A stretch of DNA of 64,000 bases from assembly GCA_041742315.1 (NCBI GenBank), contig JBGSIX010000073.1, positions 12,008 to 76,007 on the forward strand, given 5' to 3'. The translations under genes were made by a program, and so were the position numbers. Position 1 is the stretch's first letter. Each line of letters opens with the position of its first letter. Positions 33,608-59,723 of this stretch are shown piece after piece. Source of the stretch: Phycisphaerales bacterium (lineage in GTDB: Bacteria > Planctomycetota > Phycisphaerae > Phycisphaerales > UBA1924). Below the pieces are notes generated by a model, which searched no databases, was not told where the DNA came from, and was given only the letters and a program-made list of their open reading frames with translations.

Positions 33608-33620
33608 ACTTGGGAGACAG

Positions 33621-33692: not shown

Positions 33693-33940
33693 TTCTTTCT
33701 TGCCCCCCAGTTCGGGTTCTTTCTCTGCGACTCGGCGCCACATCGATGAACCGGGTTGCCTCTGCCTGACGTGACGGGTTCGCACCGAGATGCAACCTTC
33801 GGGCGAGTTTCGCGATACAGGTCAGCGTCTGCCCGAGCGATGCCTCATGGCGCCATCAAAGGTATTCGAGCGAGGGGGGCGAGAAGTTTCAATTGATGCC
33901 GAATCCCAGGAGCATGGCCGAATTGGGATCGCAAGATAGA

Positions 33941-33988
33941 AAGCGGGCGAACGGACTCGAACCGTCAACATTCAGCTTGGAAGGCTGA
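33941..33988. repeat. Distal att direct repeat: displaced 3' portion of tRNA-Gly(UCC)
   Basis: The 48 bp aagcgggcgaacggactcgaaccgtcaacattcagcttggaaggctga are identical to 59651..59698. Confidence 0.9.
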
Positions 33989-34301
33989 AAGCCTCTATCG
34001 CAAGGTGCTGGTCCAATCAGCACTTACGAGCATACCCCATTCGATCGCAGCGATTGTGCCAGCGATTGTTCGACTAAGCCTGCCTCCCTCGTGACAGACG
34101 TGTATGAGAATCAGCCTGAACTTCAGCGGCTCATCACTGCGTGGGACAGGCTCCCGGAGGCGACCCGACGGGGCATCATGGTGATCATCGACGGCTGTGA
34201 GATCGGGTAGATCCGTTTGATGGTGCCCCCTTGGACCCCCAGAAGAGCGATTCCAAGCCCGGGTATTCATTCTCGCCGGGGAGTTGCTAAACTCTGAACC
34301 G

Positions 34302-34763
34302 ATGCCCAAAGGTGCCCTTGCCATTTTTGCATTGCTATTGGCGGTCCTATCGGCGGCTCCACTGCCTCTTCGTACCAATGTATTATCGTCTTTAGCTGCT
34401 TCTCACACGCATTTCCACGTCCGTAGTCACGGTGGTTTACCTCACGTCCACCATCACTCGCACGACAGGCCTCATCCCTCTGGTGCCTTGCCGGAAAAGG
34501 CAGGTTGCTCGGTTTCTGTTGAGATTTCTCGATACGAGAACAACTGTTGCTGCCACGGTCACGGGCACGAGGTCTCCAAGAGCGAGTTCGCGATCCGGAA
34601 CGGGTCCCGGGATTCGGTTCAAAATCTGGTCGCCTATGCGAAATCGCCCGTCATCATTCCACTTGTGGTGATACCCGATGAGCACCGCCACCGCTGGCCA
34701 CTTGCTCGCGGGCGACCACCGGACCAGTTGGTCCATATTCGAACTGTTGTGCTGCTGACCTGA
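34302..34763 (+). CDS. Small secreted His/Cys-rich protein, first gene of RND operon 1 (position-equivalent to czcI)
   Basis: Signal-like N-terminus MPKGALAIFALLLAVLSAAPLPL. His run HTHFHVRSHGGLPHVHHHSHDRPH. Cys motif GCSVSVEISRYENNCCCHGHGHE. It shares the pattern [GS]C[SG][VL]...N[ND]CC with the ORFs at 43873..44244 and 54831..55238. Coding status is unproven. Confidence 0.45.
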   Translation: MPKGALAIFALLLAVLSAAPLPLRTNVLSSLAASHTHFHVRSHGGLPHVHHHSHDRPHPSGALPEKAGCSVSVEISRYENNCCCHGHGHEVSKSEFAIRNGSRDSVQNLVAYAKSPVIIPLVVIPDEHRHRWPLARGRPPDQLVHIRTVVLLT

Positions 34764-34808
34764 ATCGGACTGGTTTCTTCCAGCCTTGCTGTCGCGTGCG
34801 GTCGCCGA

Positions 34809-36335
34809 ATGGTGACCGTGACGCGGAGCCTGATCGGTCCTTGCACGCTGTTCGGAGCACACACTTTGCAGAAGTATCCATCCCGGCCCGCCGGTGCCGG
34901 TTCCGCCCTCATCGCATTGAGCGGCGCCTCGGTGATCCTCGCGGGCTGTCAGAGTTATCAATCCAGGCCGCTCGATCTCGCGGCGCACCGTAACGCCTGG
35001 GAAGCGCGTTCGCCGGGCGACGAACCTGTGCGAGCGTTCGCCGACTCGCTCGACCAATCGGGCGAGACGGGCGTTTATGACCAGTCCGACGGGCTGAGTC
35101 TTGCCGAGGGCGAGGTCGTGGCCCTCGTGTACAACCCCGAGCTTCGGCTCGCAAGATTGCAGGCCGGGGTCGCGTTGGCGTCCGCGGAGCACGCGGGACT
35201 CTGGCAGGACCCGCAACTGGGCATCGATTTCCTGACACTGATCGAAAGCGGGTCGAACCCGTATGTCACAACGCCTGGGTTGGCGTTCACGATCCCGATC
35301 TCGGGCAGGCTCGAAGCCGAGAAGGCCCGCGCGGATGCCTCGGCCCGAGCCGAACTGACGCGGGTTGCTGAGCAGGAGTGGCAGACCCGGCTCGACATTC
35401 GGCGAGCTTGGCTCCGCTGGTCCGCTGCCAAACTCAAGGCGGAGCAGACCGAGAAGCTGCTCACGTCGATCGAGTCGCTCGTTTCGTCCACGGCAAAGCT
35501 CGCCGACACTGGAGAGATCCTGCGCACAGAGGCAGCGCTCTTTGCGATTGAGCTTGCGGCTCAGCGCCGGGCGCTTCTGCTGTACCGGGGCGACGAGGCG
35601 GAGGCGGAGCAGGAACTGCGAGCACTGCTCGGGCTCTCACCGGGCGCACCGCTCGAGCTTGTGCCCTCGGTCGTGTTCGATGCGGACCCAGGCGATTTCA
35701 CCTCCCAGCACGCGGCATCGCAGAGCCTGACGCTCGCGGTTCTGCGTGACGAGTACGAGGTCGCAGAACACACACTCCGACGTGAGGTGCGCAAGCAGTA
35801 CCCCGATCTGACCATCGGGCCGCTGGCGGAGTTTGATCGGGGCGACACGCTACTCGGGTTCTCGCTGGCGCTACCCATCCCGATCCTCAACGCGAACAGG
35901 CAGGGCATCGCCGAGGCGCACGCGGAGCGCGAGCTTGCCAGAGCCGCGTTCGAGACCGCGTACGAGCGGCTTGTGGGCTCGCTCGCAGCCACGCACGCAC
36001 GCCTCACTACGCAGCGCCAACAGCGTGAGTTCATCGAGGCAGACATCGTGCCGCTCGTGGATCGGCAGCTCGCCGATGCACAGAACCTGCTCCAGCTGGG
36101 CGAGGGCGGCAGCCTCGTGCTGCTCGAAAGCCTGACGCGTGTTGCTGACACGCAGATGGCCCTCATCGATGTGAGGCTCGGCGAATCCATCGCCTGCGCT
36201 GAGCTTGCCCTGCTCGCTGGTCCGCCGGCGAACACATCCGTTGACCATTCAAACACAAAAACACACACTCCGGGCGAAGCCGAAGCGGCCCCTGTGACAG
36301 CCGAGGGCAACAACGCCCGCGAGGTGAATCCATGA
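34809..36335 (+). CDS. TolC-family outer-membrane efflux lipoprotein
   Basis: Lipobox ILAGCQS. Two-repeat OEP architecture. Upstream of the adaptor and RND genes, with an ATGA overlap. Confidence 0.8.
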   Translation: MVTVTRSLIGPCTLFGAHTLQKYPSRPAGAGSALIALSGASVILAGCQSYQSRPLDLAAHRNAWEARSPGDEPVRAFADSLDQSGETGVYDQSDGLSLAEGEVVALVYNPELRLARLQAGVALASAEHAGLWQDPQLGIDFLTLIESGSNPYVTTPGLAFTIPISGRLEAEKARADASARAELTRVAEQEWQTRLDIRRAWLRWSAAKLKAEQTEKLLTSIESLVSSTAKLADTGEILRTEAALFAIELAAQRRALLLYRGDEAEAEQELRALLGLSPGAPLELVPSVVFDADPGDFTSQHAASQSLTLAVLRDEYEVAEHTLRREVRKQYPDLTIGPLAEFDRGDTLLGFSLALPIPILNANRQGIAEAHAERELARAAFETAYERLVGSLAATHARLTTQRQQREFIEADIVPLVDRQLADAQNLLQLGEGGSLVLLESLTRVADTQMALIDVRLGESIACAELALLAGPPANTSVDHSNTKTHTPGEAEAAPVTAEGNNAREVNP

Positions 36336-40885: not shown

Positions 40886-40932
40886 CCCATCCGCAGAACC
40901 TCGATACAATCCGAAACAAGGAGATGCACACC

Positions 40933-41626: not shown

Positions 41627-42097
41627 TCAGTCCGGCATGCGAAAGATACCAGACGCCCGGATCGTCAGTACCTGCTCACTCGGGCGAGGTCCGACGACGC
41701 CCTCAACTACGATCACATCAAGCTCCGAGAGTCCTGCAGCTTTCGGATCGATCCCGGCAGAGGACCCGTCGGCCCCGGTGATCTGAACCGTCGCAGAGTG
41801 TGTGGCGATCTGCTCCTTCGGCACGCAGCAGTAATCCCAGGGCGTTGCGCACTTGTCATCGGGGTTGTCAGCGCAGTGCGGGATACTCGTGTCCATCATC
41901 GTTAGTACCGGGCTCTCGGCCGACATCGGCTCCTTGCGTCCCCCGATGCGACCTCGCAAGACGATCCGGTCACCTTCCTTCGCCGTGGCCTTCGCTTCGT
42001 CGACAGACAGCACAGATGCCGGCTCGCTCACGAGTAGCCAGGCAGGATGAGAATCGCCCGGCACGCCGGCTTGGCTGGTAGGGGCTACACCCCGCAT
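41627..42097 (-). CDS. Hypothetical Cys-motif protein, last gene of the decayed ABC efflux operon
   Basis: 3' part of ORF 41627..42574 taken from the ATG at 42097. Motif IPHCADNPDDKCATPWDYCC. The start is uncertain and no signal peptide is seen. Confidence 0.4.
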   Translation of the reverse strand: MRGVAPTSQAGVPGDSHPAWLLVSEPASVLSVDEAKATAKEGDRIVLRGRIGGRKEPMSAESPVLTMMDTSIPHCADNPDDKCATPWDYCCVPKEQIATHSATVQITGADGSSAGIDPKAAGLSELDVIVVEGVVGPRPSEQVLTIRASGIFRMPD

Positions 42098-42294
42098 GAC
42101 GGCTCCCAAGTCTTTAGTTGTCTCCGCGGATTCTCTCACCGGGAGGGCCGCGTGGATCTCAGGCGAGGCGTAGATGATGCCTGCACTCTGTTTCAAACCA
42201 GGGATGCTCGCCGCGGCAATGCCCTTGGTGGACGCATCGATCTGCGATCGCTCGACGCCCTCCTCGCTTCCGGTCCTGACGCAAGGCACACTCC

Positions 42295-42953
42295 TCAAAC
42301 CGAACGGAAACACTCGGTGATCTCTCGGCGCGAGGCCTGAATCGCTGGGACCAGTCCTGCTTGTCGTGACCAGCGAGTTGGACAAACTCGAGCGCCGTAT
42401 ACGCCACGTTCTGATCCTGCGGGTTGTCCGACCGAATGATGCCCACGACATAAGCCGTGATCCCGGCGGCATCGAACCGCATGCCGGGCCGCAGTCCTCG
42501 CCGCGAAGCGAGCGTTTCACCAAGCAGAGCCGTATCGGTCCGGGAAGGCCAATCGTCATATGCCCCATCGACAAGATCGATGATGCTCTTTGAGTTCTTC
42601 AGGAACTCCTCCTTTGGCACGCCACGGAAGGTTACCACATCCATGCTCGTCCGGCAGTTGGAGACAACAATCATCATCGGCGTGGCGCTGATGACCCCTT
42701 CGATTCCCTCGATCCTTCGCTGATAATCCTGCGGCAGTTGGCTCGTGGCCGGGCCGTAACGGTCCTTGCGGTACACGACAAGCGTGGTATCGGGTGCCGA
42801 AGCCGATGTGGCGAGCGTCACACTGCGGTTCATTGTCTGCACCGATGCAAACAAGAACATCGCGATGGTAACGCCCGCGATCGTCAGCACCGACCGCACC
42901 CGGTGCCGCACGATCTGTTTCAGGATGTATGGAAGACAGCGAATCGATCTCAT
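42295..42953 (-). pseudogene. MacB/FtsX-type ABC permease with an internal deletion
   Basis: The N-terminal TM1 plus periplasmic domain (MRSIRCLPYILKQIVRHRVRSVLTIAGVTIAMFLF...ALEFVQLAG) is joined out of frame at about 42360. The joined piece is only the canonical permease C-terminus AGLVPAIQASRREITECFRSV, with its stop at 42295. TM2-TM4 are absent. Confidence 0.7.
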
Positions 42954-43465
42954 GTAGTACCCCCTGCGTACGCAAAATCCGCGTTCACTTGCTTCATCAA
43001 ACGTCCTTTGTCCATGTGCAGCGTCCGCCGGGCGTATTGCGTCGTGTTCGGGCCGTGCGTTACCATGATGATGGTCTTGCCCATATCGCGGTTGAATTCC
43101 TGTAGAAGCAACATGACCGCGTGAGCAGAGAGCTTGTCAAGGTCACCTGTCGGTTCGTCGGCGACGATGATGGCAGGATCCGTCACGATCGCCCTGGCAA
43201 TAGCGACGCGTTGCTCCTGTCCGCCCGAGAGTTGCCTCGGAATGTGATCTAATCTCACCGTAATGCCCACTCGGTCGAGCGCATTGGAGACTCGACGGTG
43301 TCGCTCCTTGCGCGTCAATGGGTGCAGCAGGAGCGGCAATTCGACGTTCTCGTACGCTGTCAATACCGGCACGAGGTTGTAGAGATGGAAAATGTATCCG
43401 ACGTGCTTCGAACGCCACTCGGCGAGTGCGTTTCGACTGAGCGTCGCAAGATCGATCCCGTCCAC
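42950..43465 (-). pseudogene. ABC transporter ATP-binding subunit lacking the Walker A region
   Basis: It begins mid-domain (VDGIDLATLSRNALAEWRSKHVGYIF). The signature [14 protein letters not shown] and Walker [13 protein letters not shown] are present, but there is no GxxGxGKS. The Q-loop Gln is replaced (IFHLYN). Confidence 0.75.
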
Positions 43466-43862
43466 AACGAGTGATCCACGCGTCGGCGAATGACTCGCAC
43501 CTGAACTTCGAGTGTGTTCTTCTGCACGTCGGCTTCGTGCAGCACACGCAGAACCTCGCCAAGAAGTTGCGTCCCGTGGATTGCTTCAACCACGATCCTG
43601 CATGACTGCCCACAAACACACCGGAGACATCCGCCAGCGGCACGTCCACTCGCACCTGCAATCTCGATGGGTCGTAAAGATGCACGAGATGAGCCGAGTG
43701 TGGATCATCCATCCCTAACATCACTTTGTCTCCCGGTGCCCTGAGCCGACGCGTCACGACGCCAGTGACCGGCGAGCGGATCGTCATGCGATCAACTCCG
43801 CTTCGAGGAGCGTAATCAGACATATAAGTTTCTCCAATATCGAACACAAATGCGCGCAGCAA
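43466..43862 (-). pseudogene. Efflux periplasmic adaptor remnant (beta-barrel part only, frameshifted)
   Basis: TIRSPVTGVVTRRLRAPGDKV...LQVRVDVPLADVSGVFVG continues in another frame as GQSCRIVVEAIHGTQLLGEVLRVLHEADVQKNTLEVQVRVI. The frameshift is near 43603. The N-terminal half and the C-terminus are missing. Confidence 0.65.
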
Positions 43863-43872
43863 GCGCGCACCA

Positions 43873-44244
43873 TTAGCACAAAGCCAATGTCGTGGACCTT
43901 GAAGGACGCTTCAACCCGTCGATATGGGGAAGGAGCGAGTAGTTCTCAACCGAGATCTCATGACGCGACACGGTGGGAACCGCGACCGCCAAGGTTCCAT
44001 CGAGGAACTGGAAGAGGAATACCATATTGACACCGGTGCAGCATCGCTGCGGACAATTACAGCCGTCGCATCCTGAGGCTGGGGCTGGGGCTTCGCTGCA
44101 TTCATCCTCACCGCACACATCGGTCTCAACCCCACAGCAGTCATTGCTGCGATCGGCCTGCCGGTCGAGCATCGTGGGCGAGACATCGCCGCCCAAACCG
44201 CAACCACCCGAAGGCAACACCGCCGCGGTATGCAGCGGGTGCAT
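43873..44244 (-). CDS. Small Cys-rich protein, first gene of the decayed ABC efflux operon
   Basis: 123-aa ORF with GGCGLGG...SNDCCGVETDVCGEDEC...GCDGCNCPQRCC. It ends PHIDGLKRPSRSTTLALC. It shares a Cys pattern with the ORFs at 34302 and 55238. There is no clear signal peptide. Confidence 0.35.
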   Translation of the reverse strand: MHPLHTAAVLPSGGCGLGGDVSPTMLDRQADRSNDCCGVETDVCGEDECSEAPAPASGCDGCNCPQRCCTGVNMVFLFQFLDGTLAVAVPTVSRHEISVENYSLLPHIDGLKRPSRSTTLALC

Positions 44245-44628: not shown

Positions 44629-46998
44629 TTAACTAGACTTCCGGGTTTGGAGTTTCAGGCGCAGCGCGTTCCCAATTACTGACACCGAGCTGAAGCTCAT
44701 CGCCGCGGCGGCGATCATGGGGCTGAGCAGAACGCCAAAGAACGGGTAAAGCACGCCGGCAGCAATCGGAACGCCTGCAGCATTGTAAACGAAGGCGAAG
44801 AAGAGATTCTGGCGGATGTTCCGCATCGTGGCTTTGCTCAGCTCTCGAGCCCGAACCAGCCCGTTGAGGTCACCACCGACGAGCGTGATAGCGGCGCTCT
44901 CGATCGCGACGCCAGCCCCAGTGCCCATAGCAACACCGATGTCGGCCTGGGCGAGCGCCGGGGCGTCGTTGACCCCGTCACCTGCCATAGCGACCTTGTG
45001 ACCCTCGTCCTGGAGCTTGCGGATGACCTCGGCCTTCTGGTCTGGTAAGACTTCGGCCTCAATACGGTCGATCCCGAGTTGTCCCGCGATTGCCTCGGCG
45101 GTCGTGCGATTGTCGCCTGTCAGCATGACGACAATCAACCCGCTGTCGTGGAGCGCGTCGATCGCGTCCTTTGTGGTCTCCTTGATGGGATCTGCAACGG
45201 CAAGCAAGGCCGCGAGTTGACCATCAATCGCGGCGAACATCGCTGTCCCACCCTTCTGACGCTGCTCATCGGCGCGCACTTTTAATGCTTCCACATCGAC
45301 GCCCTCATCCTGCATCAGTGCCGGCGAGCCAATGGCGACACGAGCACCGTCAACCGTCGCGGCTATGCCCTTGCCTGTGATACTTTCAAAGTCCGATGCC
45401 TCGAAGCGCTCATCGGTTCGGCTTTCGAGATCCGAAACGATCGCCTCCGCGAGCGGATGCTCTGACCCGCGTTCTGCGGCAGCGAGCAGCGCGAGCACGC
45501 GGGTTTCGTCATTTCCTTCAATGACTTCTGACAAGACAAGCTGGGGCTTGCCTTCGGTCAGGGTGCCGGTCTTGTCGACAACGATAATGTCGATCTTCTC
45601 GAAAATCTCGAGGGCCGAGGCGTTTTTTACGAGCACGCCCTGCTTGGCACCCTGGCCCGCGGCGACCATGATCGACATCGGAGTCGCAAGCCCGAGCGCA
45701 CACGGGCAGGCGATGATCAAGACCGAGACCGCCGCGACAAGTGCGTAGCTGAACGCGGGTGAGGGGCCAACGAGGAGCCACACCACAAAGGCGATGATCG
45801 CGACAGCAACAACGGCTGGAACGAACCATGCCGCGACCGCGTCGGCAACACGCTGGATCGGGGCGCGGGAACGCTGCGCCTCGGCGACCATCTGCACGAT
45901 CTGAGCGAGTGTTGTCTCCGACCCAGTTCGACGGACCCGCATGATGAACGAGCCGGACTTGTTGACCGTGCCCCCGGTCACCTCATCGTCCTCACGCTTC
46001 TCGGCCGGCACCGGTTCACCAGTGAGCATCGATTCATCGATGGTGCTTCGGCCCTCGACGACGATGCCGTCGATCGGGATTTTGTTGCCCGGACGGACGC
46101 GGACGCGGTCATCGGGCTGGAGATCTTCAACCGGGACATCCTTCTCGCTCCCATCCTCGGCGATCTTGCGGGCAACAGGCGGAGCCAGTTCGAGTAGTTC
46201 TCGGATAGCCCCCCCGGTCTGTCTGCGAGCCCTCAGTTCCATGACCTGCCCGAGGAGAACAAGCGTGACGATGACAGCCGCGGCTTCGAAGTACACACCA
46301 ACGCGACCCGAGTGCGTCCGTAGCGCCTCCGGGAAAAGTCCCGGCCAAACCGTCGCGACCACACTGAACGTATACGCGATCAAGACACCGATGGAAATCA
46401 GCGTCCACATGTTCGGTTGCACGGCCCGGATCGATCGTACGCCTCGTACGAAAAATGGCCAGGCGCACCACAGCACAACCGGCGTGGCCAGAGCCAACTC
46501 GATCCACTGGCTCACGGCGGGGGTTATCACAGATTCGAACGGGTGCCCGAAAATCATGCTCCCCATGACGTAGACCAAAAGGGGTGCTGAGAATACTAAA
46601 GCAATCCAGAATCTCCGCGTCATTTCGCGGAGTTCGGAGTCGTCCTGTTCTGCAGTTGCGTCGAGAGGTTCGAGCGCCATGCCGCACTTGGGACAGTCGC
46701 CCGGACCAACCTGCCGGACCTCCGGGTGCATGGGGCATGTATAGATCGCGTCCTTCGGGCCCGTTTGCTGGTTACTTCGTTTATTGTGGTCGCGATGGTC
46801 GCAGCAGGAGTGTTCGGCATTGCTGGTAGACTCCTCATGCGATACAACATACTGAGATGGATTCGCACGGAACTTCTGGGAGCAGCCCTTGGAACAGAAC
46901 AAGTATTCGTTGCCCTTGTAAACGGCTCGATCGGCTTCCTGACCTACCTTCACCGACATGCCGCAGACCGGATCGATATGAGTTCCGATTTCGCTCAT
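44629..46998 (-). CDS. copA: Copper-translocating P1B-type ATPase with N-terminal TRASH/YHS-like and Zn-ribbon-like metal-binding domains
   Basis: Motifs [19 protein letters not shown] and [16 protein letters not shown]. The N-terminus has DPVCGMSV...FCSKGC and [24 protein letters not shown]. Confidence 0.9.
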
Positions 46999-47025
46999 GG
47001 ATGTGCTCTCTTTGTGTCTTTCAGG

Positions 47026-47571
47026 TTACTCGGGGGTTGGCTCGAAGCTAGGGACGGCTCTGGACTCGGCTTCCTCTTGAGAGCGGGCGACGCCGTTCTG
47101 CCGGATGTCTCGGATAAGCCACTCCATCTCTTTGATTTCTCTGCGTTGGGCCTGAATGATTCCGTCCGCCAGTTCGCGAACGCGTGGATCCTCAATCTGA
47201 GCACGCTCGCTTGTGAGGATGGCGATGGAGTGGTGCGGGATCATGCCTTCCATATAGTCCGTGTCGCTCACGGTGATCTGGCTGCGGACGAGAGCGACAC
47301 CTCCCCCGATGAGCACAACACCGATTGCGAGAACGACTACATTCATCGTCTTGTATTTGTACATGCCGAGCATGAAGAGCAGCATGACGATGGCCATCCC
47401 GCCGCCCATGATCAGTGTCATGAACAGGCGGGTCTCACTGAACCATGCGTGCTCGATCAGCTTGTATGAATGAAGGTACATCAGTATGAACATGACAATC
47501 ATCGATGTGACAATCATCGCTGCAAACCGTACATATGAACCGCTATGCATTACTTCGAGTTGCTTGTCCAC
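47026..47571 (-). CDS. Membrane-anchored DUF305 domain protein
   Basis: GTG at 47571 lies 5 nt after AAAGGAG. An alternative ATG lies at 47550. Three TM segments are followed by GMIPHHSIAILTSERA and LADGIIQAQRREIKEMEWL. Confidence 0.7.
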   Translation of the reverse strand: MDKQLEVMHSGSYVRFAAMIVTSMIVMFILMYLHSYKLIEHAWFSETRLFMTLIMGGGMAIVMLLFMLGMYKYKTMNVVVLAIGVVLIGGGVALVRSQITVSDTDYMEGMIPHHSIAILTSERAQIEDPRVRELADGIIQAQRREIKEMEWLIRDIRQNGVARSQEEAESRAVPSFEPTPE

Positions 47572-47590
47572 GAGATCTCCTTTCTGAATC

Positions 47591-50500
47591 TCAATTCTCA
47601 GCGTGTAATTGCTCGCTAAGACGGAACTTCCACTCAGCACCCCAGCAGTAGAGGATGGGGACAACGAACCATGTGAACGAGGCGACCACCATTCCACCGA
47701 ACGTCGGGATGGCCATGGGAACCATGATGTCCGATCCTCGTCCGTTGCTTGTGAGCACGGGCAGGAGCGCGAGAATGGTTGTGGCACTGGTCATCACTGC
47801 GGCGCGAATCCGAAGTTGACCCCCCTCAACCACAGCCCTGCGGATTCCTTCGATCGAGTCTGGTCTGTCTTCCTTCATCGACTGCTCGATTCGAGTCGCC
47901 ATGATGACGCCGTCGTCGGTAGCGATGCCAAATAGAGCCAGGAAGCCAACCCAGACCGCGACACTGAGGTTGTACTGCTGTACATGAAAGAGCTCTCGGA
48001 GATTTGTCCCGAGCAGGTTTGAATCGAGGAACCAAGGCTGGGCGTAGAGCCAGAGCATTAGGAACCCGCCACCCCACGCAACGAAGACTCCCGTGAAAAC
48101 CATCATGGTTATGCTAACCTTGCGGAACTGAAAGTAGATCAGCAGAAAGATGATTGCCAGTGAAAGTGGAAGAACGACAATCAGTCGCTTCGCAGCTCTG
48201 ACCTGGTTCTTATACGATCCCGCGAACTCGAAACTGACACTCGCGGGTATCGTCAGCTCACCGGCATTGATCTTGTTCTGGATGAACTCACGAGCATCGT
48301 TTACGACGGTCACTTCCGCGAACCCGGGCTTCTTGTCGAACAGCACATAGGTGACGAGGAATGTGTCCTCGCTCTTGATCATCTGCGGCCCCCGTCGGTA
48401 TTCGACCGAGGCCAGCTCACCCAGTGGCACTTGGGCACCGCTCGGAGTTGGCACGAGAATGTCACCGAGCGTTTCGGGTTCGTCGCGCAGCTCACGTAGA
48501 TAACGGACACGCACGGGGAAGCGTTCGCGTCCCTCCACGGTCATGGTCAGCGGCTTGCCGCCAATGGCAACTTCAATGACCTCCTGCACATCCGCGATCT
48601 GGAGCCCGTAGCGAGCGATCTTCTCACGGTTGATCTCGATCTCCAGGTAAGGCTTACCCACGACCCGGTCCGCAAAGACCGCTGCCGGCTGGACACTGGG
48701 GACCTGCTTCAGCAGGCCCTCAAGAGCGAGTCCGAACGACTCGATAGATTCAAGATCGGCTCCGTACACCTTGATGCCCATCGGAGCCCGGAACCCCGAC
48801 TGCAACATGACAACGCGCGTCTCGATTGGCTGCAATTTCGGGGCGCTGGTGACACCCGGCATATCAGCCGCAGCAACGATCGCGTCCCAGATGTCCTGAG
48901 TCGATTCGATTTCATCGCGCCACTGGCGATACGGGCGTCCGCTTGAGTCAGGGATCAGTTCACCCTGCTCATTGCGCACGAACTGGTCGGTGTCCCTGTC
49001 GTAACGGAAGTTGAGCCGTCTCCCGCTCTCGTCGGTGCGGTACTCGTGCTTGTATTCGATGATTGTTTCGACCATCGAGATCGGAGCAGGGTCGAGCGGG
49101 CTCTCGACTCGTCCAATCTTCCCGACGGCCTGCTCGACCTCTGGCACACTCATGATGCGGCGATCGAGCTCTTTGAGAATCTCGGTCGCTTCACCGATCG
49201 ATGCGTGAGGCATCGCGGTGGGCATGTAGAGAAACGAGCCCTCGTCGAGCGAGGGCATGAACTCGCTGCCTAGGCCCGGAAAGGCATGAGCGACCTGTGT
49301 GACCGTCCCGTTCCGGCGCAACGAGTCGGGGAGCCAACCGAAGATTCTGTCAAAGCCGAGCCAGGATGTAGCGCCGATGAGGACAACGATGACCGCGGGC
49401 GAGAGGGCGACGAGTTTGTGTCGCAGCGCCCACGCGAGCACGGTCGGGAACGCCAGGCGGATCAGCCAGAAAGCGAACAGGATCCCACCAACGAACAGTG
49501 CGATGAAGAGTGCGTTGCCGAGTGTTCCCGGAATCGGGCCGAGGGGCATCCAAGCGTCCGCGAGCACGGTAAGCACGACGAGCACCACCACGAGATTGAC
49601 AATCCAGGTCGCCGAGCGAACAAACCGGCTGCGGGACCACTGAAGCAGCCAGGCGAACCGGCCTCGGTTTGGCAGACGCCAGCCCAGCAACACATGCGCC
49701 ACCGCGGGCAAGATCGTCACTGCGATGACAATCGACGAAATGAGCGCGAATGTCTTGGTGTAAGCCAGCGGCTTGAAGAGCTTCCCCTCGGCAGCTTCCA
49801 TCGTAAAGACAGGTAGGAATCCTACGATAGTGGTCGCGACCGCGGTCAGGACTGCTCCACCGACCTCGGCACTGGCTCTATAGACGACCTCCAATCGTCT
49901 CTCGCTCTCGTTCGCCTCTCCAAGACGGCGCAGGATGTTCTCCGTGAGCACGATACCCATGTCGACAATGGTTCCGATGGCAATGGCGATGCCCGAGAGC
50001 GCGACGATGTTGGCGTCAACGCGAAAGAGTTTCATGCCGATGAAAGTCATGAGCACAGTCAGTGGCAGCATCGCGCTGATCAGGAGACTGGTCCGCAGGT
50101 GCATGACCATTAGCACGACAACAACGACTGTGACGAGCACCTGCTGCACGATGGCAGAGTTGAGCGTTTGGAGCGTTTCCTTGATCAGACCCGTCCGGTC
50201 ATAAAACGGCACGAGCGTGACACGGCTCTCAGTGCCGTCGGCGAGGACCTTTCTTGGCAGCCCGGGTGCGATGTCGTTGATCTTGTCCTTGATGCGCTGA
50301 ATGGTGGCCATCGGATTCTCGCCGTAACGCACGACGACGACACCTCCGACGGCTTCCTCCCCGGCCTTGGTCAGCACGCCTCGCCGGAGCGCCGGGCCGA
50401 GTGAGACTTTGGCGATGCCGCTCAGGAGAATCGGCTGCCCGTCACGCGCGGCGATGGCGGTCTGCTCAATATCGACGACACTCCGGATGAATCCGAGTCC

Positions 50501-51286
50501 CCGGACGATGTACTCCGCTCGGTTCACCTCGAGCGTTCGGGCGCCAACATCCAGGTTGCTCTTGCGGACGGCGGCGATGATCTGCTCAAGCGACACGTTC
50601 GTCGCCCGCATCGCGTCTGGGTCGACATCGATCTGGTACTCCTGCACGAATCCACCGATGGACGCGACTTCCGCGACACCCTCAACGCCGGCGAGCTTGT
50701 ACTTGACGATAAAATCCTGGATGGACCGGAGTTCCTCGAGTCCCCAGCCGCCGGTGGGGTTGCCATTTGGGTCACGTCCTTCGAGCGTGTACCAGAACAC
50801 CTGTCCGAGCGCCGTCGCGTCAGGACCGAGCGCGGGTGAGACACCGGGCGGGAGCGTCCCAGCGGAAAGAGAATTGAGCTTCTCCAGCACGCGCGATCTG
50901 GACCAGTAGAACTCAACGCCTTCATCGAAAACGACGTAGATCGTGGAGAAGCCGAAGACCGAGTAGCTGCGGATGTCCTTGACCCCGGGGATGCCGAGCA
51001 ACGCCACGGTCAGGGGGTAGCTGATCTGGTCGTCAATGTCCTGCGGGCTGCGTCCGGCCCATTCGGTGAAGACGATCTGCTGGTTTTCGCCGATGTCTGG
51101 GATTGCGTCCACGGGGACCGGGCTGCGAGGAAGCCCCGCGATCTGCCAATCGAACGGCGCGACAAGCACGCCCCAGAAGACCGTGACCGCAAGGCCGATC
51201 GCAACGACCAGTTTCTGCTCCAGACAGAAACGGATGAGCGAATTGAGCGGGCTTCTGCTATTCTGGTGCGGTAGAGGATCACTCAT
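47591..51286 (-). CDS. CusA/CzcA-family heavy-metal efflux RND transporter, long form
   Basis: About 1230 aa. The TM4 region is LSGIAIAIGTIVDMGIVLTEN. There are extra hydrophobic segments and a soluble insert relative to pumps of about 1050 aa. ATG at 51286 lies 7 nt after GAGGGG. Alternative ATGs lie at 51292 and 51301. Confidence 0.9.
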   Translation of the reverse strand: MSDPLPHQNSRSPLNSLIRFCLEQKLVVAIGLAVTVFWGVLVAPFDWQIAGLPRSPVPVDAIPDIGENQQIVFTEWAGRSPQDIDDQISYPLTVALLGIPGVKDIRSYSVFGFSTIYVVFDEGVEFYWSRSRVLEKLNSLSAGTLPPGVSPALGPDATALGQVFWYTLEGRDPNGNPTGGWGLEELRSIQDFIVKYKLAGVEGVAEVASIGGFVQEYQIDVDPDAMRATNVSLEQIIAAVRKSNLDVGARTLEVNRAEYIVRGLGFIRSVVDIEQTAIAARDGQPILLSGIAKVSLGPALRRGVLTKAGEEAVGGVVVVRYGENPMATIQRIKDKINDIAPGLPRKVLADGTESRVTLVPFYDRTGLIKETLQTLNSAIVQQVLVTVVVVVLMVMHLRTSLLISAMLPLTVLMTFIGMKLFRVDANIVALSGIAIAIGTIVDMGIVLTENILRRLGEANESERRLEVVYRASAEVGGAVLTAVATTIVGFLPVFTMEAAEGKLFKPLAYTKTFALISSIVIAVTILPAVAHVLLGWRLPNRGRFAWLLQWSRSRFVRSATWIVNLVVVLVVLTVLADAWMPLGPIPGTLGNALFIALFVGGILFAFWLIRLAFPTVLAWALRHKLVALSPAVIVVLIGATSWLGFDRIFGWLPDSLRRNGTVTQVAHAFPGLGSEFMPSLDEGSFLYMPTAMPHASIGEATEILKELDRRIMSVPEVEQAVGKIGRVESPLDPAPISMVETIIEYKHEYRTDESGRRLNFRYDRDTDQFVRNEQGELIPDSSGRPYRQWRDEIESTQDIWDAIVAAADMPGVTSAPKLQPIETRVVMLQSGFRAPMGIKVYGADLESIESFGLALEGLLKQVPSVQPAAVFADRVVGKPYLEIEINREKIARYGLQIADVQEVIEVAIGGKPLTMTVEGRERFPVRVRYLRELRDEPETLGDILVPTPSGAQVPLGELASVEYRRGPQMIKSEDTFLVTYVLFDKKPGFAEVTVVNDAREFIQNKINAGELTIPASVSFEFAGSYKNQVRAAKRLIVVLPLSLAIIFLLIYFQFRKVSITMMVFTGVFVAWGGGFLMLWLYAQPWFLDSNLLGTNLRELFHVQQYNLSVAVWVGFLALFGIATDDGVIMATRIEQSMKEDRPDSIEGIRRAVVEGGQLRIRAAVMTSATTILALLPVLTSNGRGSDIMVPMAIPTFGGMVVASFTWFVVPILYCWGAEWKFRLSEQLHAEN

Positions 51287-53318
51287 GGTCATGCCCCTCA
51301 TGACCGCCTGAATGATCGTTGTTCAGAGGTGCAAACGATTGCCGGATCTCTCCGCAACGGAACATGCGTGAGCCAAGGTATGGATTTCGGATCTGCTCAC
51401 CTCGCTGGATCCAGTCGGCTCCCTTGTTCCCAAACGCCATCGGACAGTGAACGACATACCAGGTCTCGTTGCGTTCGTGTCCGAACTGTTCCTGCAGCGA
51501 GAGCACCGCTCTGCTCATGTCCTCGAACCGCATACGAGCCGATTCGAGGTCTTGGGGGGAGCCGTCGTGGCGGAGGTTCGCAGCTGCGAGTCTCCATGCG
51601 TTGAGCCGGAGCCTATCAAGACCGGCATCCTCAACAAATCCAATCGCGGTGCTTAGATCGCCAGCAGCGCGGTTGAAGCCATTCATGTCATCCGATGCCA
51701 GAGCTTCTTGTGCGTCGAGGTAACCCGCGTACACAGGTTCAAGCGCATGCACGAATGAAACGGGCACTCTGCCACTTTCGGTTATAGCTTTGTCAGCGCC
51801 GATCAACTTGTCGTGACCCGAATGGACGGAAGCAGTCTTCCCACCATCGGGCTTCATCATGCTGGGCTTGGCAGCGATCTGCATCGCACTGTCAATCCGG
51901 AAGGCGCCGCTCACGACGACCTGCTCGCCCTCTTCCAGCCCTTCACGAACGATGTAGAAATCACCCGCACGCGGGCCGAGCACGACTTCGCGGCCTTCGT
52001 AGGTCGGCGTTTCCGTATCCTCGACCGCGACGTACACCACCGATCGCTTGCCCGTAAAGAGCACCGCAGTCCGGGGCACTACGAGCGGCTCAACTGCTTG
52101 TGCAGGCTCGCCGACAATGCCCAGTGATTCCGCAGGGACGAGATCCATGCCGCAGATGTCACACTGGCCGGGTTCGTCCTTGACGATAGAGGGGTGCATG
52201 GGGCTCAGCCATCTCCCCGCGAGTTCATCGCCAACCACGGCACCAGTTTCAGAGATTCGGGGTCGTAATACGGCAGAGGCGAACATCCCCGGCTTGAGAC
52301 GGCGATCTTTGTTGTCGACCGCGACACGCACCGTAGCGGTGCGTGTCCGGTCGTCCACCAGCGTCTCGATGAAGGAGATCTGGCCCTCGAACGACTCACC
52401 GGGATGAGCCTCAACCGTGAAGGTGAGTTTCTGACCCCAGCGGAGCATCGGCAATTGCGATTCGTATGCCTCCAAATTGAGCCAGAGGCGAGAAAGATCC
52501 GCAACTGTTGCGATCGAAGAACCGGTGCTCACATAATCACCCTCGCGGACCGCAAGGTGCGTCACAACTCCGCCAATCGGAGCGAAGATTGTCAGCCGAT
52601 CTGATTGATACTCACCGCTCTCGATTTCGGCGATCTGTTCATCGGTGAGCCCGTACAGCCGTAGTTTGTCGCGGGAGGCAACAAGGGTGTCCCGCGTCGC
52701 GGATCGTACAATCTCGCTCATACTTTCTGAGCCGTTGCTCGCCGCGGTGATTTGTCTGAGTTCCTCAAATGCTGCGAGTAAATCTGGGCTATAGACCTCT
52801 GCGATGTGGTCGCTCTTTGAAACGATTACGCCCACGTAGTTCACGAATAACCGATCGATTCTGCCGGGGAAGTATGCGGTCAACCGTGCAACTGAAGTCT
52901 CGTCATAAGTTACCTTGCCATAGAGACGGGTCTCAGCGGTCGGGAAGAACCGTGCAACGGGCGTGGTCTCGATCTGGCTCATCGCTGCAGCCGATTCGCT
53001 AAGCGATAGTCGGAGCGGGTTGGATGCTCCCGCATGGTCCGTAACGGCGATCAGATCCATATAGCAGATCGGGCATTTGGCATCCGGGTCCGGGAGCCTG
53101 ACAGATGGGTGCATCGAGCAGGTGTACATCTGCGGCTCGGCACCGCCAGAGTTATGAGTATGTGCATCGATCGTTGGCGATGGCGTCGGATCCTTTGGGC
53201 TTCCAATGCGGTAGCCGATTACAAGCGCGAGCATGATCAACAGCAATGCGATCGCGGCAGACGTGTGCTTCCAGAGCCAGGCGGAGACCGTGCGGATTCG
53301 GTGAGATACTGTGCTCAT
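51279..53318 (-). CDS. Efflux RND periplasmic adaptor with two Zn-ribbon-like heavy-metal-binding domains and a C-terminal DUF3347 domain
   Basis: 679 aa. Contains YTCSMHPSVRLPDPDAKCPICYMDL and LSPMHPSIVKDEPGQCDICGMDLV. The C-terminus YVVHCPMAFGNKGADWIQRGEQIRNPYLGSRMFRCGE is DUF3347-like. Confidence 0.85.
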   Translation of the reverse strand: MSTVSHRIRTVSAWLWKHTSAAIALLLIMLALVIGYRIGSPKDPTPSPTIDAHTHNSGGAEPQMYTCSMHPSVRLPDPDAKCPICYMDLIAVTDHAGASNPLRLSLSESAAAMSQIETTPVARFFPTAETRLYGKVTYDETSVARLTAYFPGRIDRLFVNYVGVIVSKSDHIAEVYSPDLLAAFEELRQITAASNGSESMSEIVRSATRDTLVASRDKLRLYGLTDEQIAEIESGEYQSDRLTIFAPIGGVVTHLAVREGDYVSTGSSIATVADLSRLWLNLEAYESQLPMLRWGQKLTFTVEAHPGESFEGQISFIETLVDDRTRTATVRVAVDNKDRRLKPGMFASAVLRPRISETGAVVGDELAGRWLSPMHPSIVKDEPGQCDICGMDLVPAESLGIVGEPAQAVEPLVVPRTAVLFTGKRSVVYVAVEDTETPTYEGREVVLGPRAGDFYIVREGLEEGEQVVVSGAFRIDSAMQIAAKPSMMKPDGGKTASVHSGHDKLIGADKAITESGRVPVSFVHALEPVYAGYLDAQEALASDDMNGFNRAAGDLSTAIGFVEDAGLDRLRLNAWRLAAANLRHDGSPQDLESARMRFEDMSRAVLSLQEQFGHERNETWYVVHCPMAFGNKGADWIQRGEQIRNPYLGSRMFRCGEIRQSFAPLNNDHSGGHEGHDHE

Positions 53319-54743
53319 GGTGTGTCCCCTTCCGGGAGTAGGTCCGAGTCATCGGTTGCCAAGGTTTGACCCACAAGGCGATTGAGTCTTGCCAGGGCCT
53401 GCCCTCGGTCAGCGCGGGCGCGTTCGGTGGCGATGGCATACTCAAGCAGCGTGCGTTCGGTGTCGAGGAGATCGAGGAAGTTCTTTTCGCCCGCTCGGAA
53501 ACCGGCGAGCGAGGCACGCAGCGATTCCTCGGCCTTGGGGATGAGCGTGCCCTCGTAGAGCCGAACCCTGCGATTGGCGTCCGTGTGCTCGAACCAAACA
53601 CGCTGGATCGCCGAAGTGATCTTGTTCGACTCGTCTGCACGCGTGTGCGAGACTTCCAGGCGACGTGCGATCGATTCACGCACGCCCGCGTTGTACTTCT
53701 CGCGTGAAATCGGCAACGTCATCCCGAAGCTGAGCATGATCGGGTCGTCGCCGCTCTCAGGGATAGAGCTATTCATGGCCTCGCCCGTCACGATGTAATC
53801 GAGTCCGACACTCAGGTCTGGCATCCCGTTCAAGCGGGCGGCCTCGGTGCGGACGCGTTGCTCAGCGATCTGCTCGTCAAGTGCGAGCAATGTCGGGTTC
53901 ATCGTGCTCGCCAGCTCTGCGAGTTCTGGCCCATCCATAGACACTACACGCCCGGGCAGCTGGGCCATGGTTGGTACCGCGGTCCCGGTCGGTCGATTGA
54001 GGGAGGCGTTGAGCTCAGCGACGTAGGCGGGGCGCATCGAGCGGAGCTGAGTCAGCCGGTCCTCAAGCTGACCAAGCTCGACCTGGACGCGTGTGAGTTC
54101 GGGATGCGAACCGAGCCCGACGCTGTAGCGGATCCGCACGACCTCCTCGAACGATTGCAACAACTCGAGGTTCTCCTGCGTGATCCGCACGACCGCGTCG
54201 AGATAGACGAGTTCGTGCAGGGTTCGCACGACCCGCTCGGTGACCGCAAAGCGTTCGGCTTCGATGTTGAGCCAAGCGGCGCGCCGCCAAGGCTGCCGCG
54301 TCCTTTCGCTCACCGAGCAGCCCTGGCCAGGGGAACGCCTGGCTCACGCCGATCCGGGCGTGCTGGGGGCCGGTCCGGGTCTCCACCTCGTCGAGAAAGA
54401 ACCCGACATTCAATCGAGGATCAGGCAGCGCCCCGATCTGGGGCAGCCGCTCGGTGGAGGCGACCCATCGCTGATAAGCCGCCTCGACTGAAGGACTGTG
54501 ATAGAGCGCATATCGAACGTAATCGTCCGGCGACGCATCATCGGTCAGCCCTGGAGCAACGATCGATTCGCCGTCACGCTCCTCGGCTCGGTAGACGGAT
54601 GCGATGGCCTGTGAATTGTTCTGCTTTGCGGACTGGACGCGCAGTGAACCGCGTTCCCGTGGGGCATCGAAAGGCGATGAGCACCCCGTGAGAAGGCAAC
54701 TGACCACGGTCAACGCCGCCAATTGGGCGGGTCGGACGGCCAT
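53315..54743 (-). pseudogene. TolC-family outer-membrane efflux lipoprotein, interrupted by a frameshift
   Basis: ATG at 54743 follows AGGAG, with the lipobox LLTGCSS. The reading frame switches within the GC run near 54285 (...FPWPGLLGERKDAAALAARR | AAWLNIEAERFAV...). It is split between ORFs 54063..54764 and 53315..54313. Confidence 0.7.
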
Positions 54744-54830
54744 ATCAGGCTCCTGGATTGACAATCAGAAAACGTGACAACATGCTTCATGCGTTCAGTG
54801 CGGGCGCACTGTGACTATGGAAGCTCTGAG

Positions 54831-55238
54831 CTACGTTCGCCAGATGCCCAGGATGGCCCTGATTTCGTTGTGTGTCTTGTTCGCGTATCGGCTGTCGAAA
54901 TGGGTAGCAGAGATGATGGATTCGGAGTCGGGCTCGATCTGCTCGCGCCCAGGTGGGTCACAGATCTGGATGGCAACGAGGGAATCGCGGTCAGACCTTG
55001 GTAGCGGCGCTTCGGGTGCCCGCTTAGGTTGATCGGTCGGGTGGATCTCACAGCCACAACCAGTAATTGCTGTGTGACAGTTTGGAGCCTTCGGAGCGGG
55101 CTCACAGCAGTTGCTCTGGAGGGCTGGGACCGAGCACGATGAACCACTTGCCGGCTCGCTCGTGCCCATCCGTGGACCGGCTGCCACCATGAGCAGTGGG
55201 TGCCAGACCATCACCAAAATGACAAAAACACGCATCAT
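54831..55238 (-). CDS. Small secreted Cys-rich protein, first gene of RND operon 2
   Basis: Trimmed to the ATG at 55238, giving the signal-like MMRVFVILVMVWHPLLMVAAG. Contains SSCSVPALQSNCCEPAPKAPNCHTAITGCGCEIH. Confidence 0.4.
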   Translation of the reverse strand: MMRVFVILVMVWHPLLMVAAGPRMGTSEPASGSSCSVPALQSNCCEPAPKAPNCHTAITGCGCEIHPTDQPKRAPEAPLPRSDRDSLVAIQICDPPGREQIEPDSESIISATHFDSRYANKTHNEIRAILGIWRT

Positions 55239-58695: not shown

Positions 58696-59698
58696 ATGGC
58701 AACCAAACGCACGAGATCGAAAGGCACCGGATCGCTCTTCAAAAGAGACGGGAATGGGCCTTGGATTACGAGCTACTACGACCACTCTGGTAAGCGGCGT
58801 CAGCACTCGACCAAGACGACCGACAAGGCGGCCGCCATGCGGATTCTGGATAAGCTGGTCGCCGATTCGGCTCTTCGACGGGATGGGGTTATCGACCCAC
58901 GCGACGATCGCTACTCCATCGAGGGTCGAAAGCCACTGAGTGAGCACGTGGCGTCCTACATCGCCCACTGCCGGCACGCCGGGCAGGCTCCTCACCATGT
59001 CAACCAGAAAGCCTCGCAACTTGAGGCCCTCATCGTCGGGACCAAAGGTCACCAGGCCCCAGGAACTGACCGCTGACGCCCTTGTCGAGCACCTGTCAGC
59101 TCTCAAGGACCGCGGCCTCTCGGCCAGGTCGGTCAACTTCGCCCGCCAGATTGCAGTCGCGTTCTATCAGTGGTGCGTAAAGACGGGCCGAGCGAGGTCC
59201 AACCCCCTCAAGGTCGTCCCGAAGCAGAACGAGGACCGGGACCGCCGACGCGTCCGGCGCCCGCTTACGGACGAGGAACTGGCCCGTCTGATCGCCGTCG
59301 CTCGAGAGCACGGCCGGGAGGCCTGGTACCTCGCCGCTGCTCTTGTAGGCCTGAGGAAGGGCGACATGATGCGTCTGACGTGGTACACGGTCCTCGGGCT
59401 CTCGGACACCGCTGCAGCGATTGGCAAGCTGCCCGGTGTTGGACCCGCAACTCCCGAACCCGAGCGAGCCACCGGCACAGCCGATGCGACCGGTTTAGAC
59501 CGACAGCGATACTGCAAGCAGTTGGGGCGCGAAACCCGCCCAAACAGTGCGTCATGGCGCGATCAACACCGTCTCAATCGAGCAACCGCAGATGACCAAA
59601 AAGGCGCAGAAACCCAGAGGAAAAGTGCGTTTGGAGACTCGCAAAGAAGAAAGCGGGCGAACGGACTCGAACCGTCAACATTCAGCTTGGAAGGCTGA
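58696..59698 (+). pseudogene. Tyrosine integrase, frameshifted and internally deleted
   Basis: Arm/core-binding N-terminus MATKRTRSKGTGSLFKRDGNGPWITSYYDHSGKRRQHSTKT. The frame shifts near 59040. The core-binding and box-I region (LTDEELARLIAVA...LVGLRKGDMMRLTW) is followed by non-homologous sequence. A box-II-like trace (HRHSRCDRF...GARNPPKQCVMARSTPS) lies in a third frame. No catalytic Tyr is found. Confidence 0.75.
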
Positions 59699-59723
59699 CG
59701 CTCTACCATTGAGCTACGCCCGC
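59652..59723 (-). tRNA. tRNA-Gly (anticodon UCC)
   Basis: Manual cloverleaf on the minus strand. Acceptor GCGGGCG/CGCCCGC. D arm GCTC-AATGGTA-GAGC. Anticodon arm TCAGC-CTTCCAA-GCTGA. T arm GACGG-TTCGAGT-CCGTT. Confidence 0.9.

Follow-up and report, generated by a model that had tools for sequence, protein, structure and literature searches.

We analyzed a 64,000-nucleotide stretch of DNA from a Phycisphaerales bacterium (contig JBGSIX010000073.1; hereafter the window), in which three metal-efflux gene strings each start with a small open reading frame (ORF) rich in Cys or His: ORF1 (153 aa, 34302..34763, plus strand), ORF2 (123 aa, 43873..44244, minus strand), and ORF3 (135 aa, 54831..55238, minus strand). 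We put at about one half the chance that ORF1 and ORF3 are cis-acting metal-sensing leader ORFs of the CutF/CruR (DUF2946)/CzcI kind, which was described in 2022-2025. The two share a common design: (i) an export-signal-like N-terminus, (ii) a non-globular stretch with a conserved cluster of Cys and/or His residues, (iii) a spacer, and (iv) a strongly conserved tail. Each tail stops just 5' of a predicted RNA structure in which the ribosome-binding site of the following gene is hidden; that gene encodes the outer-membrane factor of a resistance-nodulation-division (RND) pump. The original prediction, made from the letters of the window, located all three ORFs correctly, with the peptides it quoted from them, and correctly placed each at the head of its own gene string; its further proposal that they are paralogues did not hold, as judged from the sequence comparisons given below.

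ORF3 is the window's member of a large unannotated protein family. A word-based search gave 8 hits; an exhaustive profile search retrieved, at E <= 0.001, 161 proteins that each represent a cluster at 50% identity (83 of them at E <= 1e-10), nearly all 130-140 aa long. Since these 161 representative homologues reach down to ~20% identity, ORF3 is, on the evidence of conservation, a real gene. No Pfam or NCBIfam model matches the family. Its genomic hits are metagenome-assembled genomes of Phycisphaerae, and the family appears to occur only in Phycisphaerae-like planctomycetes. An outer-membrane factor gene directly follows the leader in 15 of 15 distinct loci, and wherever the contig continues, genes for a CusB-like adaptor containing an HMBD domain and for a CusA-like pump come next. 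The leader diverges faster than the pump (identity of 30-77% vs 77-92%).

In one branch of the family, represented by two loci (L025, 1276-2832; L026, 746-2301), a gene for an extracytoplasmic function (ECF) sigma factor lies directly upstream of the leader. In L025 it has a long form of 518 aa, and in L026 a 180-aa gene is followed by a 347-aa ORF. This arrangement, in which the neighbor may include an anti-sigma gene, could mean that transcription of the operon is under the control of an ECF sigma factor, with the ORF3 family as its membrane-anchored partner, perhaps an anti-sigma-like sensor. No sigma factor gene adjoins the leader in the window or in the other examined loci, however, and an N-terminus inside the cell would leave the protein almost no cytoplasmic part for sigma binding, so that we regard such a partnership as very improbable.

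Export signals were judged by Kyte-Doolittle hydropathy over 15 residues and by a predicted N-terminal helix. ORF3 starts with an export-signal-like helix (residues 1-22; 55173..55238, minus strand): AlphaFold2, run on an alignment of 133 sequences, predicts a helix at residues 2-20 with a predicted local distance difference test score (pLDDT) of 88-95, the hydropathy maximum is 2.5 in the region of residues 4-5, and R3 is nearly invariant in the family. The original prediction of signal-like N-termini in two of the three ORFs is thereby borne out, the N-termini of ORF1 and ORF3 being hydrophobic and that of ORF2 not. The helix of ORF3 is followed by a six-Cys cluster, C35-x9-C44C45-x8-C54-x6-C61-x-C63 (55050..55136, minus strand); in the family alignment C61 is invariant, and C35, C44, C45, C54, and C63 are each at least 90% conserved. 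Further on, closer relatives have a Pro/Arg motif, APLPRxDRD, and a poorly conserved spacer leads to the tail THNEIRAILGIWRT with its TAG stop (54831..54875, minus strand), for which the family consensus is [TS]HNExQALLG[IV]WRT. In 117 members the CxC motif lies 70.7 +/- 2.8 residues from the C-terminus, across a spacer whose sequence is barely conserved. Besides the N-terminal helix, the AlphaFold2 model shows a short tail helix at residues 123-130 and no globular fold (predicted TM score, pTM, 0.22).

The tail of the ORF3 family is, on this comparison, selected as a peptide, since synonymous changes are found at most of its codons. The last three codons are nearly fixed at the nucleotide level too. 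The tail Arg is encoded by CGA in 12 of 13 loci vs a background of 13% among the Arg codons of the island (binomial p = 3e-10), and the stop codon is TAG in 12 of 15 loci vs 6 of 80 long ORFs of the same sequences (p = 1e-11), both p-values ignoring shared ancestry. Two variants with Gln at the Arg position use the rare codon CAA. No consistent RNA pairing partner was found for these three biased codons (54831-54839), and none for CGAACGUAG in the folds. The tail consensus together with the TAG bias (12/15 vs 7.5%) is suggestive of stop-codon-dependent arrest. Tentatively, and with somewhat less confidence than in the leader role as such, we propose that [TS]HNExQALLG[IV]W-R(CGA)-T-UAG is a new proline-free arrest peptide that would act at or just before RF1-dependent termination, with the six-Cys cluster reading periplasmic Cu/Ag.

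A second conserved element, YCAYAGGGAYR-[GC]TGCGCGC-YGA, begins ~12 nt past the stop codon of the ORF3-family genes (54796-54830 in the window; L003-L029). Its TGCGC core lies at +20 to +24 past the stop, mostly at +21, and is present even in the most distant loci. The element provides the 5' arm of a hairpin, the 3' arm of which varies from locus to locus. In the window this intergenic hairpin is CAGUGCG-CC-CGCACUG (54796..54811, minus strand), with the [GC]UGCGC(G/C)C motif ~21 nt past the stop as its 5' arm. The motif was also considered as a conserved peptide in frame with the leader, mostly 21 nt away, which would have implied readthrough or frameshifting past the ORF3 stop. That explanation was rejected, since the spacing varies (20, 21, 22, or 24 nt), each of the three stop codons is used, and conservation extends to every position, would-be third positions included.

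The 3' end of the ORF3 coding sequence is predicted to pair with the ribosome-binding site of the next gene. In the window, the codons A-I-L-G-I-W (54840..54859, minus strand) pair with the ribosome-binding site CCAGGAG (54750-54756) of the cusC-like gene, whose ATG is at 54741-54743 (whole site 54741..54756, minus strand), in both the minimum-free-energy and RNAalifold structures. More generally, the CCCAGGAG ribosome-binding region, which often has CCAGA next to it, is complementary to the A-L-L-G-I-W codons (GCC CUC CUG GGN AUC UGG). This helix was assessed in 13 loci with spacers of 87-100 nt. Nine of the 13 loci were folded, and in all nine the tail codons are paired with the ribosome-binding site at minimum free energy; duplex energies in 13/13 loci range from -17 to -31 kcal/mol. 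The sole helix in the RNAalifold consensus is that between the tail and the ribosome-binding site; it has 10 pairs that are kept through G-U changes, and two pairs are changed on both sides. L024 has a matched change from AUCUGG/CCAGA to GUUUGG/CCAAAC. With 120 nt of upstream context the AGGAG core is 79-100% paired, and in 10 of 13 loci the last 12 codons account for at least 90% of the pairing. When a ribosome footprint with its P site on codon -7 is masked, the predicted accessibility of the site rises in 13/13 loci, to 0.17-0.62; with the stop codon in the A site it is 0.06-0.42, and L009 is unchanged.

ORF1 is His-rich (16 His, 4 Cys) and has two homologues, both metagenomic, which are 61-62% identical to it and align over all 153 residues with zero indels. 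A protein-pattern scan of metagenome contigs found zero further relatives; a degenerate DNA pattern for WPLARGRPPD gave four matches, all of them due to chance, and the family remains at three sequences. Nucleotide differences among them by codon position are 41/32/55, 33/33/62, and 29/20/48. Because conservation is free of indels and substitutions are enriched at third positions, ORF1 is likewise a real gene by the evidence of its substitution pattern. Its export-signal-like segment (residues 1-22, MPKGALAIFALLLAVLSAAPLP; 34302..34367, plus strand) is kept in the homologues, has a hydropathy maximum of 2.7 at residue 5, and is predicted by AlphaFold2 to contain a helix at residues 3-17. The model as a whole, based on three sequences, is weak, with a pTM of 0.17, pLDDT <50 for residues 22-153, and two short low-confidence strands. 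The invariant alignment columns include a His/Cys-rich segment, SHTHFxVHSHGGLPHVHHH ... C69 ... C82xC84HxHGH (34401..34571, plus strand), in which the conserved His run reads SHTHF.VHSHGGLPHVH.H.H and the metal site has the form CxCHxHGH, neither CXXC nor CxxxC. The tail RWPLARGRPPDQLVHIRTVVLLT (34692..34760, plus strand) is near-invariant in the three-sequence alignment and contains RGRPP, with PP 13-14 residues from the C-terminus and thus within the last 15.

The outer-membrane factor gene lies on the same strand 45 nt downstream of ORF1, and two RNA structures are predicted in between and at its start. A hairpin GG(A)CUGG / CCAGCC (34767..34785, plus strand), with loops that differ among the window and the two homologous loci (L001, L002), begins 4 nt past the ORF1 stop. 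A stem-loop (34788..34829, plus strand) covers the ribosome-binding region of the outer-membrane factor gene and its start codons (ATG 34809, GTG 34818), and is present in the minimum-free-energy folds of all three sequences. ORF1 fits most of the published rule-based criteria for CutF-like proteins, i.e. PP at most 15 residues from the end, a signal-like N-terminus, and a same-strand neighbor; at 153 aa it is just above their 150-aa cut-off. The tails of ORF1 and ORF3 have [I/W]-R-T in common, in which Arg has the rare codon CGA (ATT CGA ACT at 34719-34727, plus strand, in ORF1; TGG CGA ACG at 54834-54842, minus strand, in ORF3), and CGA is retained in 3/3 ORF1-family sequences. This common element may be a coincidence.

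We propose the following mechanism for ORF3. The nascent chain would be exported co-translationally, and the six-Cys cluster ~71 residues upstream would have only just come out into the periplasm when the ribosome reaches the tail. Cu(I) or Ag(I) bound by the cluster, as opposed to a disulphide or to free pulling of the chain, would prolong the stay of the ribosome on the last codons (W, R=CGA, T, UAG). A ribosome in this position would keep the helix between codons -10 to -4 and CCAGGAG open, and a second ribosome could start on cusC. In ORF1 the mechanism would be alike, except that RGRPP would serve as the stalling-type motif and that a local stem-loop would cover the start site. All steps of this model are proposed, from co-translational export and capture of metal by the nascent chain to longer occupancy of the last codons and opening of the ribosome-binding site.

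Several observations weigh against this mechanism and the assignment behind it. Neither the ORF1 nor the ORF3 family matches the Pfam DUF2946 or the NCBIfam CzcI models; PP or RAPP occurs in the tails of 0/157 ORF3-family proteins, and the Cys motifs of ORF3 are CC and CxC rather than CXXC or CxxxC. The evidence for ORF1 consists of three sequences, and its PP lies 13 codons 5' of the stop, so that a ribosome there would be too distant to touch the start-site hairpin directly. For ORF3, the bias toward CGA and TAG was calculated as if the loci had no common descent. The window duplex of -22 kcal/mol is equalled by 12.7% of random 28-mers, and as the window-only duplex statistics are not significant, the RNA argument rests on the comparison of multiple loci. 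Synonymous recoding of the tail weakens the duplex modestly (p = 0.02-0.37 per locus); therefore, much of the complementarity comes from the Leu-Leu-Gly codons. Covariation in the tail helix is mostly one-sided (G-U), and the most distant loci (L022, L023), with spacers of 162-196 nt, lack the helix. A ribosome exactly on the stop codon would cover the pairing segment only partly, by an estimate from textbook footprint sizes. Finally, ORF2 is an orphan without an export signal, ahead of pseudogenes.

The main alternative is that ORF1 and ORF3 encode accessory proteins that bind metal and act in trans, in the periplasm or anchored in the membrane, as a chaperone, buffer, or regulator, like CusF or CzcI in its older view. 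The RNA pairing would then be ordinary translational coupling, its complementarity being largely a by-product of the Leu-Leu-Gly codons, and the tail, predicted as a short helix with pLDDT ~84, could be a peptide that docks on the pump as partner. The predicted export signal and the conserved Cys/His cluster of both ORF1 and ORF3, as well as their strict co-occurrence with efflux genes, agree with such a role. CusF itself is a folded beta-barrel with Met/His/Trp ligands that is encoded between cusC and cusB; ORF3 resembles it as a candidate small periplasmic metal-binding protein encoded within cus-type operons, but has neither a predicted fold nor a Pfam match. No globular fold is predicted for ORF3 even with 133 sequences, and outside the Cys residues, the short Pro/Arg motif, and the tail the sequence drifts freely at a fixed length. 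A docking peptide also leaves unexplained the rare CGA codon, the strong preference for TAG, and the fixed distance of ~21 nt to the conserved hairpin. In experimentally studied analogues, moreover, the product is degraded and acts only in cis (PMC9973294). Because of the codon-level constraints and the lack of a predicted fold, we favor the cis-acting sensor and consider a trans-acting role rather doubtful. For the same reasons the chaperone or gatekeeper role suggested by the original prediction appears less likely than that of a cis-acting regulatory leader.

The original prediction treated all three ORFs as paralogues of one Cys/His-rich family common to RND and ATP-binding cassette (ABC) exporters. 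Comparisons at several levels argue that ORF1, ORF2, and ORF3 are unrelated in sequence. BLASTP among them gives E values of 0.58-4, and Smith-Waterman scores compared with 1000 shuffles, the check that the prediction had set for itself, give p = 0.18, 0.41, and 0.18. At the profile level, hhalign assigns a probability of 2.4-2.5% to the ORF1 and ORF3 families, with the signal region alone aligned, and 0.5% to ORF2 and the ORF3 family. A tblastn search within the window at E <= 10 found no cross-matches among the three. The pattern on which the proposal relied, [GS]C[SG][VL]-x(8,20)-N[ND]CC, fits ORF1 and ORF2, and 0/20000 shuffles of either do so; ORF3 does not fit the pattern as written, and the expression had been derived from the very sequences tested. 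Since it is missing from both ORF1 homologues (P0001 and P0002, which have [DS]CGC in place of NNCCC) and from 157/157 ORF3-family proteins, the pattern is a fit to the three window sequences and not a family signature. Common descent of the three is thus refuted at the sequence level, and we give it only a minimal probability. The claim that the family is shared by RND and ABC exporters then depends on the orphan ORF2 ahead of pseudogenes.

ORF2 has 11 Cys residues, and a search of 5.8 billion proteins found only 100%-identical copies of it; relatives were absent from plasmids (zero) and from viral contigs (zero). The hydropathy of its first 30 residues reaches 0.95, below that of an export signal, and it has no obvious ribosome-binding site and no PP or RAPP in the last 15 residues. 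The genes behind it (41627-43862, minus strand; Pfam) are fragments of MacA/ABC/MacB-like genes with HlyD, ABC, and MacB matches: a 239-aa HlyD piece, a 171-aa partial ABC_tran, a 264-aa MacB_PCD, and a 315-aa ORF without domains. The MacA-like remnant has a GGAGA ribosome-binding site at 43831-43835 and an ATG at 43821-43823 (41627..43835, minus strand). Identical contigs L014 and L015 show the same fragmentation, and since the genes behind ORF2 are fragments, the unit may be decaying.

A terminator-like hairpin, GUGCGCGC-UUGCU-GCGCGCA followed by UUUGUGUU (43842..43870, minus strand), begins 2 nt past the ORF2 stop and fits the terminator consensus. ORF2, if functional at all, might act on this hairpin. 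The 8-mer GTGCGCGC, of which only 7 copies occur in the window on both strands, forms the 5' arm of the ORF2 hairpin (43852-43870) and is identical to the hairpin-arm core of the ORF3 family. The three ORFs, or some of them, might be chance open frames in G+C-rich leader DNA in which the RNA alone matters, as the window has 59-66% G+C and is full of long spurious ORFs. This explanation is improbable overall and is live for ORF2, given its identical copies only, the missing export signal and obvious ribosome-binding site, and the pseudogenes behind it. ORF1 and ORF3, on the other hand, are conserved as proteins with synonymous variation. Even for ORF2, the G+C content by codon position (0.59/0.52/0.68) is coding-like, with GC3 > GC1 > GC2 as in ORF3, and a terminator-like hairpin 2 nt past a stop codon would be sensible only with a translated frame.

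All three operons are carried by a 25.7-kb genomic island inserted at tRNA-Gly(TCC). Comparison of the boundary repeats revealed a complete tRNA-Gly(TCC) at the right boundary (59652..59723, minus strand) and a copy of its 3' half at the left boundary (33943..34015, minus strand), with ~50 identical bases in common. A tRNA-Gly(CCC) adjoins the island at 33620-33693 (plus strand). The G+C content of the island is 0.59-0.63 vs 0.65-0.68 in its flanks. Among the island ORFs scanned, no integrase domain was found; the gene content includes HTH_17, AAA_25, and Mrr-like genes. An Rfam search of the 33-57 kb region at E <= 1 found only tRNAs. In agreement with the original prediction, MerR, ArsR, CsoR, and two-component regulators were not found among the island ORFs scanned, and the only candidates are two overlapping small HTH_17 ORFs (56151-56429 and 56362-56682, plus strand), one of which also has a weak match to MerR_1. 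They resemble the excisionase-like gene that adjoins an integrase in L004-L007, and are more probably mobile-element genes than metal regulators.

Operon A, behind ORF1, consists on the plus strand of genes with Pfam matches to OEP (34809-36335), MFP (36332-37708), and a heavy-metal-type RND pump (37724-40885), and of a lipoprotein-like ORF (40882-41469). The best relatives of the pump among solved structures are CusA (423 bits) and ZneA (378 bits). The pumps of operons A and B have the transmembrane-helix-4 motif AIA[VI]G..VD..I...EN, which is CusA-like, CzcA having DFG...DGA...EN instead. Classification of operon A as Czc type was therefore dropped. Operon B, behind ORF3 (44629..54743, minus strand; Pfam), encodes an OEP protein (53315-54743, frameshifted), an MFP protein with HMBD and DUF3347 domains (51279-53318), a CusA-like RND pump (47591-51301; CusA match of 613 bits), a DUF305 protein (matched in ORF 47026-47787), and a P-type ATPase (44629-46998). 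The cusC-like gene is frameshifted at ~54290-54300 (minus strand) and thereby split in two (ORFs 54063-54764 and 53315-54313). L003 and L009 have an intact copy, unlike the window, where the gene is either a pseudogene or an assembly error.

In the usual account, metal control of efflux pumps is exerted by two-component systems or MerR-type regulators, to which the work on CutF and CruR adds the nascent exported peptide. The island described here has three efflux operons and no recognisable metal regulator found, and at least two of the operons are headed by candidate leader genes. A cis-acting switch that needs no transcription factor of the host would suit a mobile island. ORF3 would represent a new, proline-free variant of the CutF/CruR/CzcI kind and, if so, a self-contained metal switch free of transcription factors on mobile islands in Phycisphaerae. 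Because a PP motif was required, the ORF3 family would have escaped the published screen for CutF-like proteins. If the tail is an arrest peptide, then a new arrest motif is added to the known set, the sensing design arose more than once, and the recurrent 'hypothetical protein' 5' of cusCBA-type operons gains a label.

Comparison with known systems starts from the DUF2946 proteins CruR of Bordetella and CutF of Rhodobacter, small exported leaders that head copper-homeostasis operons. They combine a Cys motif with a C-terminal RAPP/PPP motif at a conserved distance, and control the next gene post-transcriptionally through stalling and RNA structure, a mechanism with experimental support (PMC9973294; PMC9426467; bioRxiv 10.1101/2025.02.05.636593). 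In a survey of CutF-like proteins the commonest downstream neighbor was the outer-membrane factor of a metal RND pump (PMC9973294). CutF itself, from the cutFOG operon of Rhodobacter capsulatus, is small and exported, carries a Cys metal site as well as a conserved motif at its C-terminus, and is encoded by the first gene of a copper-detoxification operon; a spacer of <100 nt contains a structure that hides the next ribosome-binding site, and the protein is proposed to sense periplasmic metal as a nascent chain (PMC9973294; bioRxiv 10.1101/2025.02.05.636593). ORF1 and ORF3 would be like it in these respects, but the window ORFs have no detectable sequence similarity to CutF and no DUF2946 match (Pfam PF11162: none of the three ORFs at E <= 10, and 0/133 ORF3-family members at E <= 0.1). 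CutF stalls on PPP, whereas the ORF3-family tail contains no proline; its Cys motif is CxxxC vs CC...C...CxC in ORF3, and the spacing is 45 residues vs ~71. The stem-loop of CutF is local and intergenic, whereas the ribosome-binding site behind ORF3 is predicted to pair with the last codons of the leader itself.

CruR (Bp2923) of Bordetella pertussis, the first upstream ORF of the DUF2946 kind to be characterised, heads a copper-regulated operon, has an export signal and Cys and C-terminal arrest-type motifs at a conserved distance, and acts post-transcriptionally on the genes downstream (PMC9426467). The CXXC-RAPP spacing of DUF2946 proteins is conserved at 45 residues, and insertion of 5 residues impaired copper control (PMC9426467). 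The RGRPP of ORF1 resembles RAPP/RGPP; it lies 13 residues from the end, whereas the R-A-P-P of CruR lies 3 from the end. CruR further differs in that it controls Rho-dependent termination, does not need its signal peptide, has a spacer of 162 nt, and is released from arrest by copper.

The analogy in position with czcI that was drawn in the original prediction holds for ORF1 and ORF3, each being a small gene directly 5' of an RND outer-membrane factor gene. CzcI of Cupriavidus metallidurans pMOL30 (NF045614) is likewise encoded by a small first gene 5' of czcCBA; it combines a signal peptide with His/Cys residues and is regarded as a regulator. That the operon would start with a metal sensor exposed to the periplasm also agrees with the grouping of CzcI, though it lacks the Pro motif, with the CutF-like/DUF2946 leader proteins (PMC9973294); CzcI itself matches PF11162 at E = 0.026 only. 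A C-terminal Pro/Arg motif had been ascribed to CzcI correctly, as the real protein ends in ARAPDRPQWQRLA, but was assigned to the wrong ORF: the tail of ORF2 has no support from conservation, ORF2 having no homologues, and it is ORF1 that holds a conserved RGRPP at most 15 residues from its end. The CzcI tail ARAPDRPQWQRLA is loosely like ARGRPPDQL of ORF1, although CzcI has no PP. The family search suggested in the original prediction was negative: at E <= 10, none of the three ORFs is matched by the NCBIfam CzcI models (NF045614 and NF045615) or by Pfam DUF2946, whereas true CzcI scores 172 bits with the CzcI models, and hhalign against CzcI aligns the signal peptide alone.

Proline-free and stop-codon-dependent arrest peptides exist, and the arrest peptide uA_LPPP has been described in Phycisphaerales (PMC10987492). 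In uDF_DGMK-stop, uA/uDF_N[SA]P-stop, uC_KYxIW, SecM, and TnaC, conservation is confined to the extreme C-terminus at the stop with a key Trp, and the arrest peptides also share an N-terminal localisation signal and regulation of a downstream gene (PMC10987492). The GIWRT-TAG tail of ORF3 and its stop-codon bias match this description. The known peptides differ in that they monitor Sec/YidC and sit 5' of secA, secDF, or yidC; none has the ORF3 motif, and none is linked to metal efflux. Taken together, these comparisons place ORF1 and ORF3 outside both DUF2946 and CzcI; that they work like CutF and CruR is our preferred reading, at about even odds.

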